Source: a bacterium
GTDB taxonomy: Bacteria; Patescibacteriota; Minisyncoccia; Phycocordibacterales; Phycocordibacteraceae
Length of the DNA stretch: 64,000 nucleotides
Direction of reading: 5' to 3'
Assembly (NCBI GenBank): GCA_023269085.1
Contig: JAHFML010000001.1
Span: forward strand, 190,356 to 254,355
This document shows, in pieces, positions 45,224 through 57,698 of this stretch (positions are counted from its first letter, which is position 1; each line of letters opens with the position of its first letter). A model generated the notes under the pieces. That model saw only the letters and a program-made list of their open reading frames with translations, did no database searches and was not told the DNA's origin. A program made the position numbers and the translations under genes.

Positions 45224-45961
45224 CTACGCCGCAAATCTCGCGGTCGCCGCGGCGAAATCCCCGGGCACGGGCGCTTCAAAGGTGCAACGCTCGCCCGAGG
45301 GGAGCATGAGAGAAAGTGAAAAAGCGTGGAGCGCTTGGCGCGAGAAGCCGAGGAGAGCTGGACGGCCATTCGCATACAGCTTATCGCCAACGACCGGATG
45401 GCCGAGATGCTTCAAGTGGACGCGGATCTGGTGCGTCCGACCGGTCTTCGGGTGCGCCTCTATGAGCGCGACCGTCTCATTCGTCGCCCCATCGCGGCCG
45501 CGCGCGAGCACGCGCCAGTCGGTAATCGCTACGCGCTGTTTCTTCTCCTCCCTCGCGCGCGCGACGCCCCAGCGCGGCGGCACCGCGCGAATGCGCACGA
45601 TCTCGGCCTCTATTGTGCCGCTGTCGTGCGCGGGATGCCCATAGACGAACGCGCGATACACCTTCTCGGTCGTGCGATTCTGGAATTGCTCTTTGAGCAT
45701 GGCATACGCCTCTTGCGTCTTCGCGAGAATAAGCACGCCCGAAGTGTCGCGATCGAGCCGGTGCACGATGCCCGGGCGCGGGATTATCTCGCCTTGTGGG
45801 CTCTCCCATGGCTCGCCCACCTCTGCCATCATTGGGTATCGCGCGAGCGCCCAGTCGGCCACAGTCGGCTCTTCGGTGCGGCCGTCGCTGTGGACAATCA
45901 GCCCTGCGGGCTTGTTGATCACGACGACATCGGCATCTTCGTAGAGAATGGAGGGTTCCAT
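45224..45961 (-). CDS. RluA-family pseudouridine synthase
   Basis: start at MEPSILYEDADVVVINKPAGL; catalytic HRLDRDTSGVLILAKT. Confidence 0.85.
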   Translation of the reverse strand: MEPSILYEDADVVVINKPAGLIVHSDGRTEEPTVADWALARYPMMAEVGEPWESPQGEIIPRPGIVHRLDRDTSGVLILAKTQEAYAMLKEQFQNRTTEKVYRAFVYGHPAHDSGTIEAEIVRIRAVPPRWGVARAREEKKQRVAITDWRVLARGRDGATNETVALIEAHPKTGRTHQIRVHLKHLGHPVVGDKLYANGRPALLGFSRQALHAFSLSLMLPSGERCTFEAPVPGDFAAATARFAA

Positions 45962-45972
45962 ATTATTTGATT

Positions 45973-46048
45973 TGGTGCATCCTGCAGGACTCGAACCTGC
46001 GACCTTCTCAGTGTAAATGAGTTGCTCTACCAACTGAGCTAAGGATGC
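45973..46048 (-). tRNA. tRNA-Val (TAC)
   Basis: 76 nt incl. encoded CCA; anticodon loop TTTACAC; T-loop TTCGAGT. Confidence 0.85.
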
Positions 46049-46068
46049 GTGGTCAGGATTAATCCCGG

Positions 46069-46152
46069 TGCCGCGAGGGAGACTTGAACTCCCAACCCCT
46101 TGCGAGGACTAGCTCCTGAAGCTAGCGTGTTTACCAATTTCACCACCGCGGC
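46069..46152 (-). tRNA. tRNA-Leu (CAG)
   Basis: 84 nt; long variable arm; anticodon loop TTCAGGA; acceptor GCCGCGG/CCGCGGC. Confidence 0.85.
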
Positions 46153-46159
46153 AAGACTT

Positions 46160-46637
46160 GATTATGCTCATACTTTGCTGAACTTTCAAATATTTCCTCT
46201 TCAGCAACGGTATGCCTTTTCTATAATACAGGTAATTACACAAAATGACCGCTTCTCTCTTGGCGAACCGAAGTTGAACATACGTCGTGCCGGCATACCG
46301 AGTTATATGACCTTTTACATGAACCATGTCACTTATTCGCTTTCGCAACCAATCGATGAAGGGCGGACTCGCCGATAAGAAACTCGCGAAATAAGACATC
46401 GCCAAACTGAATGCGATGGTAAAGGTTCCCTGTTCCAGAATGTTTAATCCCAATCTTTGTTTTGATACCGAAACATTTCTTGAAAGTTACGACTTGTTCA
46501 AGATCTTTTGAAGTGAAATCAATATGTCTGCCGTCATTCAACAGACAGCCATCTGCCGTTAATAATCCGATTGCGTACGCAAATTTTGGTGACCATTCGA
46601 TCTTTACTGCCCCTTTTGGCTTTGGTCCCCTCTTCAT
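46160..46637 (-). pseudogene. frameshifted LAGLIDADG homing-endonuclease remnant in an AT-rich insert
   Basis: ORF 46329..46637 carries a LAGLIDADG-like block FAYAIGLLTADGCL; a second half continues in another frame (ORF 46109..46453, ...YVQLRFAKREAVILCNYLYYRKGIPLLKRKYL); local GC ~40%. Confidence 0.6.
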
Positions 46638-46733
46638 TGCCTTTATTATAAACTGACCTATATAGCGTATACCAATTTATCCACTATGCCAGAAAAAACG
46701 GCCTGCCGCGAGGCAGACCGAATTGGCTTCCAA

Positions 46734-47663
46734 TTACTTCAAATCATCGAGGTACGTCTTGAGCGCAAACGCTCGCCACGAACCCGACTCGACCCCGCGC
46801 AAGACGAAACGACTCACCTCGATTCTGAACTCCTCTTGCCTCCCCTGTTTGATCAACAGGGCGAGCTTTCGGATATCCTTCTTCTTCGGGTTGTTGGCCC
46901 CTTTCGCAAGAAAGCCGATCAACTCCTCATAAAGATGACGATCGTTCAGCAGAATGGTGGCAAGCTTCTCGAGCCTGACGATGCACTTCAAATACGCTGA
47001 CCGATAATCAGCCAGCCGCACCAGCAAGCTCGCGACAAGGCGCACCACGCCTCGTTCGCTTACCACCTCATTTTCAAGCATGAACTGAATCGCTTCCGCG
47101 CTTCCCGCGAGACCAATGTCGACATGCGGTTCGAGACATTTCGACTTGAGGAATTCGCTTGAGATATGTTCTATCCCCCGCTCCCAAGCCTTAATTTCTC
47201 GTGCCACCGCTTCATACGGGAGGCTTGCCATGCCGACAATCTCATCGCCACCGTATCTCCCGAAGGAAACACAGGGAGCCTGGTCGGTCGTAGCACCAAT
47301 ACTGCTCAAGAGAGCATCACCGGCTTCGTGTGAAGCGTTGTTCACCAGACTCAAGAACGACACATCCCCGAACACGATCCAGAGGTCATTCTCGGCGCCG
47401 ATTGACTCACGCCCTTCGGACAACCGGTTATTCTCAATCTCCTCCGGCAAAAGAATACCCTTGACCTTTTCATTCAGGAACTGGAACCATTGCCCCCGAG
47501 TGAACAAACCGGTAACCATGTCGACACCGGCGTGCACCAATTCGTCTCGGGCGGACCGGAGCTCTGATTGCAATCCGACATTGTTCCTCTGTATCTCCTT
47601 ATGGAGTTTCGGGTATCGTCTGTCGAAGTCGGCTTTCAATATGTCTTGGCACTTCATGCACAC
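46734..47663 (-). CDS. GGDEF-domain protein (diguanylate-cyclase-like) with C-terminal domain of unknown function
   Basis: 309 aa; GGDEF-type motif RYGGDEI; lower-GC DNA. Confidence 0.6.
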   Translation of the reverse strand: MCMKCQDILKADFDRRYPKLHKEIQRNNVGLQSELRSARDELVHAGVDMVTGLFTRGQWFQFLNEKVKGILLPEEIENNRLSEGRESIGAENDLWIVFGDVSFLSLVNNASHEAGDALLSSIGATTDQAPCVSFGRYGGDEIVGMASLPYEAVAREIKAWERGIEHISSEFLKSKCLEPHVDIGLAGSAEAIQFMLENEVVSERGVVRLVASLLVRLADYRSAYLKCIVRLEKLATILLNDRHLYEELIGFLAKGANNPKKKDIRKLALLIKQGRQEEFRIEVSRFVLRGVESGSWRAFALKTYLDDLK

Positions 47664-48033: not shown

Positions 48034-48108
48034 TGGTGCCCCCGCGAGGAGTCGGACCTCGAATAGCGGCTTAGAAGTCCGCAGTTATATCCGTTTAACT
48101 ACAGGGGC
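48034..48108 (-). tRNA. tRNA-Arg (TCT)
   Basis: 75 nt incl. CCA; acceptor GCCCCTG/CGGGGGC; D-loop AACGGATA with A20; anticodon loop CTTCTAA; imperfect 31-39 pair. Confidence 0.7.
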
Positions 48109-52439: not shown

Positions 52440-52735
52440 CAATAAAGCGAAGCGAATATTGTGCTCGAGAGCACGTCTGGGAGACGTGCGGCAAGGAATC
52501 GAAAACCTTGCGAGCATTTTATCGAGCTTTCTGAAGCGAAGAAAAAATCCGCAAGGTGTACGCTGAGATTTTAAAAGAGCGAAGCGACTATTAAAATCCA
52601 AGTGCAGTTTCGAAGAAAGCTGCCTGAACCTGTAAGGTTCGATAAGCGTACTCGCGGTCCTTGCAAGCGTACTTTTCATTCTGAACGATTTGCAGGAAGA
52701 CGTCTCGTAGTACTATAAATACTGAGAATTAACGT

Positions 52736-53290
52736 ATGTCTAAATCTACTAACCTTAAATACTACTATCTCGAACAATATCTTGAAACAGAGGTACGGCC
52801 TTATTTTGAAAAAGAACATCACCTTACATCCGAACAGTTTTTTGCGATTATCGAATGGAAGAATCCGAAGTTTGGAAAGACTAAACTCACACACCTCAAA
52901 CCAAAAGACATAGAAAAACTTTTTAAAACTATTTACGGCGAGTCTAGGGAAAAGCAACTGAAAATTCTAGTAGACATTAAAGGTCTAAAGCTAGCCACTG
53001 CTTCTGCAATCCTTACGATTCTATATCCAGAAAGGTTTACGGTTTATGATGTGCGTGTTCGAAAGCAATTAAGAAAGCGAGGTCTGTGGGAAGAAGAACC
53101 CGATGATATTACTTATTGTGTCGACGTGGTAAATAGATACTTTGATAAATATCTACCCCCGATAGAGAAACTGGCTACAGACAGCGGGCTATCACTTCGT
53201 GATTGCGATCGTGCCTTGTGGGCACAAGATTGGCATGAAGACCTGATGGACTTCATTATTGCAGGTTCGAGCGAAAACAACACGGTTTAA
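52736..53290 (+). CDS. hypothetical protein (possible HhH-like motif), low-GC
   Basis: 184 aa; IKGLKLATASAILTILYPERFTVYDVRV; ~40% GC. Confidence 0.3.
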   Translation: MSKSTNLKYYYLEQYLETEVRPYFEKEHHLTSEQFFAIIEWKNPKFGKTKLTHLKPKDIEKLFKTIYGESREKQLKILVDIKGLKLATASAILTILYPERFTVYDVRVRKQLRKRGLWEEEPDDITYCVDVVNRYFDKYLPPIEKLATDSGLSLRDCDRALWAQDWHEDLMDFIIAGSSENNTV

Positions 53291-53298
53291 AATAATAT

Positions 53299-53913
53299 AT
53301 GAACTACTTCAAACCGATCCTGTATAGCATCAGTGTCCTTCTACTGGTCGCGCTGGTGTCCATTCGGTATCAACACGCAACACAAAAGGTTGTTGTGCCG
53401 ACTGTCTCATCAGCAACCTCATCAAACGACGCACCCTCTGATATGAGTCCCAACTGTGCCGCCTATTACAACAACGCAGGGAACGGTACGGACCCAATTG
53501 ATACGGAGCTCGCCGACTTCACTAACTTACACCCACTTTCTGATTATCTCTGCGGATCATATTCAGATGTCCTGAAGACGACACTAGCTGACGGCAAGGT
53601 TCTCTATTTTGTAGATCCAATCGCTCAAGAATCGTGTGGTAGCGGCGGGTGTACATATTTCCCCATGATTGAGGAGAGGCCGGGCGCAATCCGCCGTATA
53701 CGCGGTTTTACGGGTGGTTCTGACGCAGGTGATGACTCAGTCTTTGGCTTCCTGTCTTTCCCAAAGAAAGGAGTGGTGGAGGTGTACTGGCACGAGTCGG
53801 CAACATGCGGCACGACGAACACTTACGGATTCACTGCTACCGATACTCCTTATCTAATCTCCACATCTGACAGCTGCTCACAAGAAGGAGGCGTACAGCC
53901 TCAAAGAAAATAG
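53299..53913 (+). CDS. secreted/membrane-anchored Cys-rich hypothetical protein
   Basis: 204 aa; N-terminal hydrophobic segment; 8+ Cys. Confidence 0.35.
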   Translation: MNYFKPILYSISVLLLVALVSIRYQHATQKVVVPTVSSATSSNDAPSDMSPNCAAYYNNAGNGTDPIDTELADFTNLHPLSDYLCGSYSDVLKTTLADGKVLYFVDPIAQESCGSGGCTYFPMIEERPGAIRRIRGFTGGSDAGDDSVFGFLSFPKKGVVEVYWHESATCGTTNTYGFTATDTPYLISTSDSCSQEGGVQPQRK

Positions 53914-53930: not shown

Positions 53931-54002
53931 GCCTCCGTAAGCTAACGGATAAACTACCTCGCTTCTATCGAGGCCTTGGGGGTTCGAATCCTCTCGGAGG
54001 CA
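53931..54002 (+). tRNA. tRNA-Arg (TCT), second copy, island-associated
   Basis: 72 nt; acceptor GCCTCCG/CGGAGGC; D-loop AACGGATA; anticodon stem CCTCG/CGAGG, loop CTTCTAT; T-loop TTCGAAT. Confidence 0.65.
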
Positions 54003-54015
54003 CTGATGGTAAATC

Positions 54016-56694: not shown

Positions 56695-57081
56695 ATGATC
56701 TTCTGGAAGATATTTGCTTGGACAAATGCAATTATAAATGTTCCGTTCGTTATAGCGGCTCTTTTCGTCACGCCAGTGTTCCACGCCCTCGATGTCGCCG
56801 TATGGTTATTCAACGACTTTCCATTACTGGCTGTCCCTTTCTTGTTTGCGTACAAAGTACACGGAAAGAGATATATTCCTGCACTCGGTGTTTTAAAAGC
56901 TATTTTTGTTTTCTCTATAACTTATAACACCATTCACACCATCTCCGATTTCAAAGTATACCACTTCACTAGTATGCCCGGATTCCTGTTCGATTTGTCT
57001 TTTTATATCCTCATCATTCTGTCATTAATTTCTTTTTTGTTCTACATAAAAATGGAACGCGGCCTACAAGCGCATCATTAG
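56695..57081 (+). CDS. small polytopic membrane protein (immunity-protein-like), AT-rich
   Basis: 128 aa; 4 TM helices; directly downstream of cassette 3. Confidence 0.35.
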   Translation: MIFWKIFAWTNAIINVPFVIAALFVTPVFHALDVAVWLFNDFPLLAVPFLFAYKVHGKRYIPALGVLKAIFVFSITYNTIHTISDFKVYHFTSMPGFLFDLSFYILIILSLISFLFYIKMERGLQAHH

Positions 57082-57433
57082 CGCAGATCATATTCCACTT
57101 CCAGCGGCAGAGTTCCATCGTGGTAGATTCACTATATATGAAAGACTGCAAAAAGACAGGAACAACCATATGATGCATACTATATGAAGGGAGATCTCTA
57201 ATATATGGAAATCACTTTTTTCTCTGCGCTTAAACTTATAGGAATTGTTCTCGGGCTTGTGGCCATTTTTGCGAGTTTTGCTTTCCCTCTATTTTCAAGC
57301 ACTCAATTTGATGACATGCCAATCTGGATAAAAATCCTCGTTCCCATGATTATTACGGCGATTTCATTTTGGGTTATACGATAATCCGCAAACGAATATT
57401 TTAAAAATATCCTGGATACCGTATTGTTATCGC

Positions 57434-57631
57434 ATGCAAAAAATACTGTTCGATATTCTTATTTTGATTGGTGTCGGTATTGGCATTTTGTCGATTACTG
57501 CCCAAATAGCCCATAGTCTGTTCTCGGGCGTATCTTTCGATTCTTTGTCATGGAAAGTCAAAATGGCCATGGCAGTTGTGGTGGCACTCATTTTCTCAAT
57601 TTTTGAATGGTACACGTATACTCTCCTGTAA
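57434..57631 (+). CDS. small 2-TM membrane peptide, AT-rich
   Basis: 65 aa; a second 59-aa membrane peptide ORF lies at ~57206-57385 (MEITFFSALKLIGIVLGLVAIFASF...). Confidence 0.25.
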   Translation: MQKILFDILILIGVGIGILSITAQIAHSLFSGVSFDSLSWKVKMAMAVVVALIFSIFEWYTYTLL

Positions 57632-57698
57632 CAAGACCTAATTACGGATACTAAGAAGTCCCGCGATTGGTAGTCGCGGGACTGTGGCGCATCGATAT

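Follow-up and report, generated by a model that had tools for sequence, protein, structure and literature searches.

In this study, we analyzed a 64,000-nt stretch of DNA (hereafter the window) from a bacterium of the Patescibacteriota (contig JAHFML010000001.1), in which the remnant of a LAGLIDADG homing endonuclease gene (HEG) runs directly into a tRNA-Leu(CAG) gene. We found that this region is probably a decaying copy of a composite homing module that replaced the resident tRNA-Leu with its own copy and promoter. Such a module, as read from the sequence, would comprise a pseudo-tRNA fragment, a -10 box, the HEG, a tRNA promoter located in the last 46 nt of the HEG, and an intact tRNA. The foreign segment as a whole, from the pseudo-tRNA fragment through the HEG remnant and tRNA-Leu to a 15-nt spacer, occupies positions 46052-46684 on the minus strand of the window, i.e., 633 nt compared with 158 nt in a HEG-free relative (L089). 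The original prediction of a degenerate LAGLIDADG HEG in an AT-rich foreign insert abutting tRNA-Leu(CAG) was borne out by the open reading frames (ORFs), the motif, homology and GC content.

The dead gene covers positions 46153-46637 of the minus strand. An ORF of 102 aa (46329-46637, minus), with the N-terminus MKRGPKPKG and the opening stretch MKRGPKPKGAVKIEWSPKFAYAIGLLTADGCL, contains the first LAGLIDADG motif FAYAIGLLTADGCL at nt 46542-46583 (minus). The C-terminal part of the HEG (SASPPFIDWLRKR...RKYLKVQQSMSIIKS) lies in a different frame, within the ORF 46109-46453 (minus). From approximately 46375 down to the tRNA this second frame reads ...SASPPFIDWLRKRISDMVHVKGHITRYAGTTYVQLRFAKREAVILCNYLYYRKGIPLLKRKYLKVQQSMSIIKS; it is stop-less and extends into tRNA-Leu (46067-46152) until a TAG in the anticodon stem, the last family-conserved HEG codon ending 1 nt ahead of tRNA nt 1. 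The remnant had been predicted to end 8 nt from the tRNA, which does not hold for the reading frame; 8 nt is the distance between the tRNA and a CATAAT box described below.

Comparison by blastn with the closest intact relative (L081, the contig of the family protein P0001) revealed two conserved blocks. The N-terminal fragment (46390-46637, minus; ATG at 46635-46637) is 77.8% identical in nucleotides to L081 3098-3345 and runs out of frame to a stop at 46329, and the C-terminal fragment (46153-46375, minus), which is out of frame with the start and encodes SASPPFIDWL...RKYLKVQQSMSIIKS, is 72.7% identical to L081 3527-3834. Between both blocks, blastn and the protein alignment place 181 nt in L081 and intact relatives but only 14 nt in the window (the deletion junction, 46376-46389, minus), a net loss of 167 bp that also shifted the frame. 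Thus, the halves do lie in different frames, as the prediction of a frameshifted gene required, but the lesion is a net internal deletion rather than a simple frameshift. Approximately 55 codons were lost, including the second LAGLIDADG motif FLRGYFDGDG; mapped on the AlphaFold model of P0001, the lost stretch corresponds to the end of domain 1, LAGLIDADG helix 2 with the catalytic Asp, and two domain-2 strands, half of that domain being gone. Of the two motifs, only motif 1 (GLLTADG) is left in the window copy. Since neither fragment shows a further stop or frameshift, a single deletion killed the gene. Judged from its sequence, the element is a pseudogene descended from a LAGLIDADG member and not a functional member. 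A terminator-like hairpin followed by a T-rich stretch at 46525-46547 (minus), inside the N-terminal coding region (codons CLLNDGRHIDF), is a chance-level feature.

The GC content of the remnant (41.4%) is among the lowest 2.8% of all 485-nt windows, compared with a mean of 56.4% for the whole window. The predicted contrast of about 40% against about 65% in the surroundings was therefore correct for the remnant itself, whereas the higher figure fits the left flank only (60-70%, vs 50-57% on the right). It is extremely improbable that the deletion is a sequencing or assembly artefact and that the organism has an intact gene. AT-rich regions may be collapsed or mis-joined in metagenome assemblies, but the 167-bp loss is flanked by well-aligned sequence and is not a homopolymer slip, and a Logan assembly contig (L085, SRR14366760) is 100% identical over 2,079 nt with the lesion included, although it may not be independent of the source of the window. 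In addition, look-ups of the flanking genes by exact protein showed only the identical arrangement, the upstream 307-aa gene being recorded on 4 contigs.

A search with both frames joined, which had been proposed as a check of the homing-endonuclease assignment, gave highly significant similarity to more than 1,100 proteins (clusters; best E 6e-71, 99% query coverage, typical length 231 aa). The two halves thus come from one LAGLIDADG gene, well beyond what chance could give. The matched proteins all have Pfam PF14528, and their source names were Parcubacteria, Kaiserbacteria and Paceibacterota. The 102-aa ORF alone reached 21.4 bits with Pfam LAGLIDADG_3, below the 22.5 cut-off, and a search of NCBIfam gave no meaningful match. 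Over aligned columns, the window HEG and that of L081 are 73.6% identical in amino acids. Intact relatives contain two LAGLIDADG_3 stretches each, and the catalytic residues D29 and D121 are invariant across 34 diverse members. The AlphaFold model of the intact P0001 (pLDDT 88.8, pTM 0.87) has two alpha-beta-beta-alpha-beta-beta-alpha domains in tandem, a fold that the truncated window copy lacks, and an extra C-terminal helix (residues 202-219). The top match in the Protein Data Bank was the archaeal intron-encoded I-Tsp061I (2dch) both by sequence (E 4.5e-6) and by fold (Foldseek E 1.7e-10, TM 0.64/0.72). The leading fold matches were all LAGLIDADG proteins, and after 2dch the list included I-AniI, I-OnuI-type enzymes, I-SceI, I-DmoI, maturases and WhiA. 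By sequence and predicted fold, the family is a large set of free-standing two-domain LAGLIDADG genes of Patescibacteria. In IMG/VR, we found no credible relatives of this family and only two distant partial matches at 29% identity, and a phage vector for the HEG was rejected on that ground.

To what extent these genes are linked to tRNA-Leu was surveyed in 80 loci, with one genome per species, from many Patescibacteria lineages. A tRNA-Leu gene on the same strand begins 2-52 nt past the HEG match in 76 of the loci (53 GAG, 20 CAG, 2 TAG and 1 AAG); of the others, two have a tail-to-tail tRNA-Leu(CAG) and two are without tRNA-Leu. The statement that homing endonucleases next to tRNA genes are uncommon is thus misleading here, as the family is widespread in Patescibacteria and is found almost always directly 5' of tRNA-Leu. 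The nearest relatives of the window HEG form the CAG clade. In 17 of 20 CAG-clade loci, and in the window too, exactly 46 nt separate tRNA nt 1 from the RK of the C-terminal RKYLKI motif. Upstream of tRNA-Leu(GAG), many relatives carry a HEG of the GAG clade. A second remnant upstream of the tRNA-Leu(GAG) of the window was considered and rejected: the 550-bp gap there encodes ribosomal protein L19 and holds no HEG.

Most intact homologues end in ...RGGEIGKHA(S/T)FR(S/T), a peptide that in the window is the translation of tRNA-Leu nt 2-41. This tRNA-derived C-terminal tail is present in at least 95 of the 120 best protein entries and is disordered in the P0001 model. In public entries (typically 231 aa), the final 13-30 residues are the translated 5' part of tRNA-Leu, e.g., RGGEIGKHASFRS, and in the CAG clade 16 of 20 ORFs are stop-less ahead of the tRNA. 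Such ORFs are either an annotation artefact or a real read-through, which RNase P processing would turn into a non-stop mRNA. In the tail-to-tail loci (L013 2935-3761 and L016 780-1602), the pseudo-tRNA fragment and the HEG lie beside an inverted tRNA-Leu(CAG) with a 20-25 nt spacer and a native-looking leader, and the proteins P0078, P0084, P0095, P0099 and P0114 have the same C-terminal signature as these loci. The acceptor-stem inverted repeat could let a tail-to-tail tRNA flip in place.

Relatives of the host clade were found by a search with the flanking RluA-family gene. Among them, the site is empty in L089, L090, L091 and L096-L098, contains an intact HEG in L011, and is degenerate in the window (internally deleted) and in L093 (almost fully deleted). 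In L011 (2920-3738) and L093 (2792-2959), the entire module has the reverse of its orientation in the window, as judged against the flanking tRNA-Arg and tRNA-Val. The HEG-free relative nearest to the window is L089 (RluA 84% identical in amino acids), whose flanks match at 83-85% nucleotide identity as far as window position 46685 and again from 46051 onwards at the far end. Its site consists of the same 307-aa gene, the same terminator, 'ttttctggcata', an 11-nt leader, a tRNA-Leu(CAG) with the acceptor GGGCATG, 64 nt and tRNA-Val, with no HEG. The terminator (46699-46720, minus), an intrinsic one of the upstream 307-aa gene identified by a terminator scan, belongs to the host and delimits the insert on the left. 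In the window, the pseudo-tRNA fragment starts directly after 'ctggcata', and homology to L089 restarts 3 nt before tRNA-Val.

The tRNA genes themselves do not tell a consistent history. The tRNA-Leu(CAG) of the window (46067-46152, minus; ARAGORN; Rfam tRNA 56.4 bits) is intact and has the acceptor stem GCCGCGG; its body aligns only weakly with that of L089 (77% over 70 nt). Between the window and L089, identities are 76/76 for tRNA-Val, 80/87 for tRNA-Leu(GAG) and 65/86 for tRNA-Leu(CAG); between the window and the more distant L011, they are 64/76 for tRNA-Val, 65/87 for tRNA-Leu(GAG), 52/75 for tRNA-Arg and 86/86 for tRNA-Leu(CAG). In the host clade, HEG-free sites have the GGGCATG type in five of six cases (L089, L090, L096, L097 and L098; the exception is L091), and the carriers of a HEG or remnant (window, L011 and L093) are all of the GCCG type. 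Over all loci in hand, acceptor type and HEG linkage were associated (1/23 vs 8/10; Fisher p 2.7e-5, phylogenetically uncorrected). Identity is at least 93% within a subset of linked tRNAs that come from different candidate phyla. The HEG does not track the host either: the nearest one, in L081, lies in an unrelated neighbourhood (PurN, HAD hydrolase), whereas the HEG of the syntenic host relative L011 is only 56.5% identical. Because of the tRNA discordance, the acceptor-type association and the HEG not following the host, we infer, with good support, that the tRNA gene belongs to the mobile unit or is co-converted with it. Both ends of this predicted unit are tRNA-derived sequence.

Two alternative explanations were weighed against these data, and both appeared unlikely. 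First, a HEG might have inserted in the leader of a resident tRNA-Leu, where RNase P trims it off safely, the upstream motif being a promoter that is tRNA-like by chance. The HEG does abut the 5' end of the tRNA exactly, and the pseudo-tRNA fragment overlaps promoter-like elements (e.g., TAGACG-17-TATACT with TG in L028). However, the anticodon of the fragment matches that of the downstream tRNA in 44 of 45 loci, the tRNA-Leu(CAG) of the window shows 21 mismatches over 86 positions with its counterpart in the closest relative despite an identical tRNA-Val and equals the HEG-linked tRNAs of more distant hosts, and the acceptor type associates with HEG linkage. Second, the protein might be a domesticated, vertically inherited host factor tied to tRNA-Leu, such as a WhiA-like regulator or an RNA maturase or chaperone. 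Such a role would account for the conserved synteny. The linkage is extremely conserved over deep divergence, WhiA and the bI3 maturase are among the fold matches, and HEG GC content partly follows host GC content (r 0.77). On the other side, the gene is patchy within one host clade (empty, intact, deleted and pseudogenised), and the window has a dead gene beside an intact tRNA. Intact members never vary at the two catalytic aspartates, similarity between HEGs does not mirror that between hosts, and the HEG is AT-richer than its flanks in 80 of 80 loci.

The left end of the segment is the pseudo-tRNA fragment GTGGATAAATTGGTATACGCTATATAGGTCAG (46653-46684, minus), a degenerate copy of tRNA-Leu(CAG) nt ~8-36/37 that covers the D-arm, the 5' strand of the anticodon stem and the loop through the anticodon CAG. 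The HEG thus lies between a partial tRNA-Leu duplicate and the intact gene. In the window and most CAG-clade loci, the fragment has the form GTGGATAAATTGGTATACGCTA-N6-TCAG and is located ~15-25 nt upstream of the HEG start codon. A strict motif was found upstream of the HEG in 46 of 81 loci, compared with 4 matches in 838 kb of background. The window fragment fails this motif by one changed base beside the anticodon; it was identified by alignment with the equivalent element of 15 other loci and by the core 15-mer AATTGGTATACGCTA, which is unique in the window (0.04 expected by chance). The 44 loci with agreeing anticodons comprise 14 CAG, 29 GAG and 1 TAG, the exception being an AAG tRNA with a GAG fragment. 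The distance from GG to the anticodon is 16 nt in the fragment and 15 nt in real tRNA-Leu genes in both clades. The D-arm of the fragment (GGTATACGC) is that of the HEG-free native tRNA-Leu(CAG) in L039, L042, L090 and L098, unlike HEG-linked tRNAs, which carry GGTAAACACGC. The -10 box of the window is 2 nt nearer the fragment than in L012, and this shift and the changed base appear to fit decay.

Other loci show variants of the fragment. In L029 (~680-750), it differs from most loci in keeping the complete 5' strand of the acceptor (GCGCGGG), with the sequence found in the downstream tRNA. Upstream of the HEG-free tRNA-Leu(CAG) of L042 (3121-3260, minus), there is a partial direct duplication of the host leader and tRNA nt 1-36, the D-loop having a 16-nt substitution; it is followed by 19 nt resembling the HEG -10 region and then by the repeated leader and tRNA, with no HEG. 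Loss of a HEG or attack by the nuclease could have left this duplication behind.

The fragment also bears on the suggestion that the element is a relic of a tRNA or of a group I intron, of which only the tRNA-associated origin was partly borne out. Under an intron scenario, a group I (or other) intron in tRNA-Leu would have lost its ribozyme, leaving the fragment as the old 5' exon. The end of the fragment, at nt ~36-38, falls within the anticodon loop, the position of group I introns in bacterial tRNA genes, and such introns are common in Patescibacteria (PMC13011429). The closest solved relative of the protein (2dch) is also an intron-encoded enzyme. But the downstream tRNA is complete, the upstream fragment has no acceptor strand and one extra nucleotide, and distances of 15-25 nt from fragment to start codon and 0-30 nt from HEG to tRNA leave no room for a ribozyme. 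Rfam searches at E<=1 detected two tRNAs only in window 45800-46900, with no Intron_gpI or other family, and a tRNA only in the closest intact locus (L081 2900-3900); at gathering score, 8 further loci gave tRNAs only. Thus, checking relatives did yield intact copies of the gene, e.g., in L081, but no group I intron in the loci scanned, and an intron or other structured RNA at the HEG was rejected. Moreover, the endonucleases reported from Patescibacteria tRNA introns are of the HNH type in tRNA-Asn and not LAGLIDADG (PMC13011429). We regard a relic of an intron in tRNA-Leu as very unlikely, although an intron origin of the HEG in the distant past is possible. A tRNA island of the recombinase type was also rejected: the 633-nt insert contains no recombinase, and its repeat is the 5' part of the tRNA, located upstream, which is the wrong polarity.

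Promoter-like sites were found at both ends of the HEG. At its 3' end, a promoter scan identified TTGAAA-17 nt-CATAAT (46161-46189, minus; 10/12 matches), which ends 8 nt ahead of tRNA nt 1 and is the putative promoter of tRNA-Leu(CAG). The identical site occurs in L012, and the site is kept in about 16 of 21 CAG-clade loci, whose consensus over the 60 nt upstream of the tRNA is ...TTGAAaATt...GcATAaTc. The two hexamers overlap Leu-Lys and Ile-Ile codons of a conserved HEG peptide, and codon choice there is strongly skewed compared with the rest of the same genes: Leu is TTG in 12/14 (18% elsewhere), Ile is ATA in 14/15 (24%) and ATC in 13/15 (29%), and Arg is CGC in 11/12 (11%), with P values of 6e-6 to 4e-10 (1e-7 to 4e-10 for TTG, ATA and CGC) that are uncorrected for relatedness. 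The CAG-clade proteins are only 50-70% identical, so synonymous sites elsewhere are scrambled. A natural deletion further supports promoter function of the HEG end: in L093 (RluA 77% identical to that of the window), the HEG is lost save for a TATACT box and its last 52 nt, which retain TTGAAG-17-CATAAT-8-tRNA. There is good support, therefore, for the last 46 nt of the HEG doubling as the predicted promoter of the linked tRNA.

At the 5' end, a TATAAT box (46645-46650, minus) 7 nt upstream of the start codon is the putative -10 box of a leaderless HEG transcript. Of 79 loci, 43 have an upstream TAnnnT hexamer whose end is exactly 6 nt from the start codon, and in 11 more this distance is 7 nt, with a background of ~3 per offset. 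Because no Shine-Dalgarno sequence fits between the box and the start codon, transcription would begin at the start codon itself, and a leaderless HEG mRNA is well supported as a prediction. The TTGGTA of the pseudo-tRNA fragment was tried as the corresponding -35 box and rejected, its spacing to the -10 box being 19-23 nt in the CAG clade; TATACG/TAGACG at 17 nt fits several loci and is a weak match. In at least eight GAG-clade loci (L031, L033, L035, L039, L042, L045, L062 and L069), TTGACA/TTGACG occurs 5-8 nt before tRNA nt 1, which is too near to be a -35 box.

Based on these observations, the composite homing module could operate as follows. An intact endonuclease would cut a HEG-less resident tRNA-Leu, probably in the anticodon-arm region where the pseudo-tRNA fragment ends. 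Repair from a module-bearing donor would pair the broken tRNA with the fragment on the left and the linked tRNA on the right, and would copy in the HEG, the embedded promoter and the donor tRNA-Leu allele, so that the resident gene is replaced. The nuclease would then be free to decay, as is usual for such elements, which invade, degenerate and are finally lost. The 3' end of the HEG would be unlosable, since the only local tRNA-Leu(CAG) depends on the promoter within it, and would be kept by host selection. The window would represent the third stage of this cycle, with a dead nuclease and with tRNA promoter and tRNA intact, and the window and L093 would be two stages of decay. The cleavage target and the self-protection of the module are both hypothetical.

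Several observations weigh against this explanation. HEG identity and linked-tRNA identity correlate poorly (r 0.19). The recipient leader and 5' acceptor strand, which simple homing would leave behind, are absent to the left of the window fragment, and canonical homing predicts neither inverted modules (L011 and L093) nor tail-to-tail tRNAs (L013 and L016). The 16-nt spacing indicates that the fragment was inherited with the element and not regenerated at each invasion. The statistics are uncorrected for shared ancestry, and the promoter calls are consensus matches only, the promoters of Patescibacteria being poorly characterised. The cleavage site, target and activity of the family members are predicted only, and the linked tRNA shares the anticodon loop with the presumed targets, so that it would itself be cut absent protection. 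An immunity based on the D-stem, where linked tRNAs mostly have T:A and native tRNAs and the fragment have C:G, was not supported, as four linked tRNAs have C:G; a metagenome scan for the T:A-type tRNA, underpowered with a single locus (L088), found it there with no HEG. Immunity through the anticodon stem was rejected, as linked and free tRNAs share the same stems. Neither comparison gave a sequence signature of resistance.

A more far-reaching version, in which the family would be a natural 'cut-and-replace' drive on an essential tRNA gene, is put forward only tentatively. In this scenario, the endonuclease would destroy the resident tRNA-Leu (the GGGCATG type in the host clade), whose 5' part would survive as the pseudo-tRNA fragment, and the module would bring in a cleavage-resistant tRNA-Leu of its own, driven by a promoter that lies within the endonuclease gene. 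The host would then depend on module DNA for an unlosable tRNA, even past the decay of the nuclease. The fragment would be the left homology arm and at the same time belong to the HEG promoter, with a possible further role as operator, and modules would homogenise tRNA-Leu genes horizontally across Patescibacteria.

Compared with known systems, the family has the fold and motif arrangement of monomeric two-motif enzymes of the I-Tsp061I/I-DmoI type, which are encoded by archaeal rRNA introns and belong to PF14528. It differs from them in being ~20% identical, in not being intron-encoded, in its location beside a tRNA gene rather than in rRNA, and in its extra C-terminal helix, the codons of which overlap a tRNA promoter; the window copy also lacks domain 2. 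Synthetic 'cleave and rescue' gene drives combine a nuclease against an essential gene with a linked replacement copy. The likeness is one of concept only, as it is hypothetical here that the linked tRNA resists cutting and that the resident allele is cut, and spread would occur via DNA repair and horizontal transfer and not via killing of non-carriers in crosses.

In the candidate phyla radiation, LAGLIDADG genes are known inside 16S and 23S rRNA genes, mostly in introns and mostly single-domain, LAGLIDADG_3 being reported from 16S insertions only (PMC11270868). These genes and the tRNA-Leu family share the phylum, the superfamily and a patchy spread suggestive of homing, but the tRNA-Leu family is free-standing and two-domain. 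In fungal mitochondria, free-standing HEGs sit between a gene and its partial duplicate (atp6, cob; PMC6279837), and in both cases an intact and a truncated, non-functional copy of the target flank the HEG, so that the host gene keeps working. Here, however, a bacterial tRNA gene would be the target. Its truncated copy corresponds to the 5' part, is located upstream and is conserved in the family rather than freely decaying, and the promoter of the intact copy also comes with the element. The phage-borne SegB of T4 is a GIY-YIG enzyme inside a tRNA cluster, and Seg and Mob enzymes spread by intronless homing (PMC2988022, PMC13096335). A free-standing HEG with tRNA genes and a spread with flanking co-conversion, predicted in our case, are common to both; in contrast to the SegB/Seg enzymes, the present family has a LAGLIDADG domain instead of GIY-YIG, has just the two distant matches at 29% identity in IMG/VR, is chromosomal, and has a precise junction that ties it to a single tRNA species. 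Group I introns are found in the anticodon loop of tRNA genes in Patescibacteria, including introns with HNH genes in tRNA-Asn (PMC13011429), i.e., in the same phylum and with the breakpoint of our pseudo-tRNA fragment also in that loop, but the module has neither a ribozyme nor an interrupted tRNA and involves another endonuclease family and another tRNA. LAGLIDADG genes 5' of tRNA-Leu in Patescibacteria were not described in the literature searched, the coverage of which was incomplete, so that an earlier description is possible. The window element is thus a new dead member of the family, and the architecture of the module was likewise not described in the literature searched.

Some other features of the window and its relatives were also recorded. 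The 307-aa gene (46734-47657, minus) lies between tRNA-Arg(TCT) and the module, has no Pfam domain and, among the fetched relatives, is present only in the window lineage and L089. In L091 (2240-2576), a translation made by eye gives an HNH-like signature (...DHKDP...CANCHRRK) directly upstream of tRNA-Arg(TCT), where no gene was called; if real, a close relative of the window organism would have a further endonuclease beside a tRNA gene. ARAGORN reported a 'tRNA-???' with a two-base anticodon in L090 (5307-5392), where relatives have tRNA-Leu(GAG). Ten tRNA genes are dispersed across 20 kb of the window, and two clearly different tRNA-Arg(TCT) genes lie within 6 kb (48034-48108, minus; 53931-54003, plus). 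Two AT-rich islands (52650-53300 and 56800-57650; ~37% GC vs 56%) near tRNA-Arg genes may be other foreign insertions, and their ORFs (e.g., 52736-53290, 184 aa) gave no credible Pfam match.

For the window alone, the result is modest: it identifies a dead gene and suggests why the 3' end of this gene persists. Annotation is affected more widely, as hundreds of family proteins have translated tRNA-Leu tails and the pseudo-tRNA fragment and embedded promoters are unannotated. More than 1,000 natural variants of a compact monomeric LAGLIDADG enzyme are also available in this family, and they presumably recognise a defined and conserved target. Homing endonucleases in essential genes usually hide in self-splicing introns or inteins. 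If our explanation is true, bacteria would have a third, intron-free solution, in which the HEG brings a replacement for its tRNA target together with the promoter, a natural analogue of replace-and-rescue drives by which selfish DNA would be made indispensable after the death of its enzyme. Finally, tRNA genes of Patescibacteria could move between lineages as endonuclease cargo, which would matter when tRNAs are used as phylogenetic markers and when translation in such reduced genomes is to be understood.

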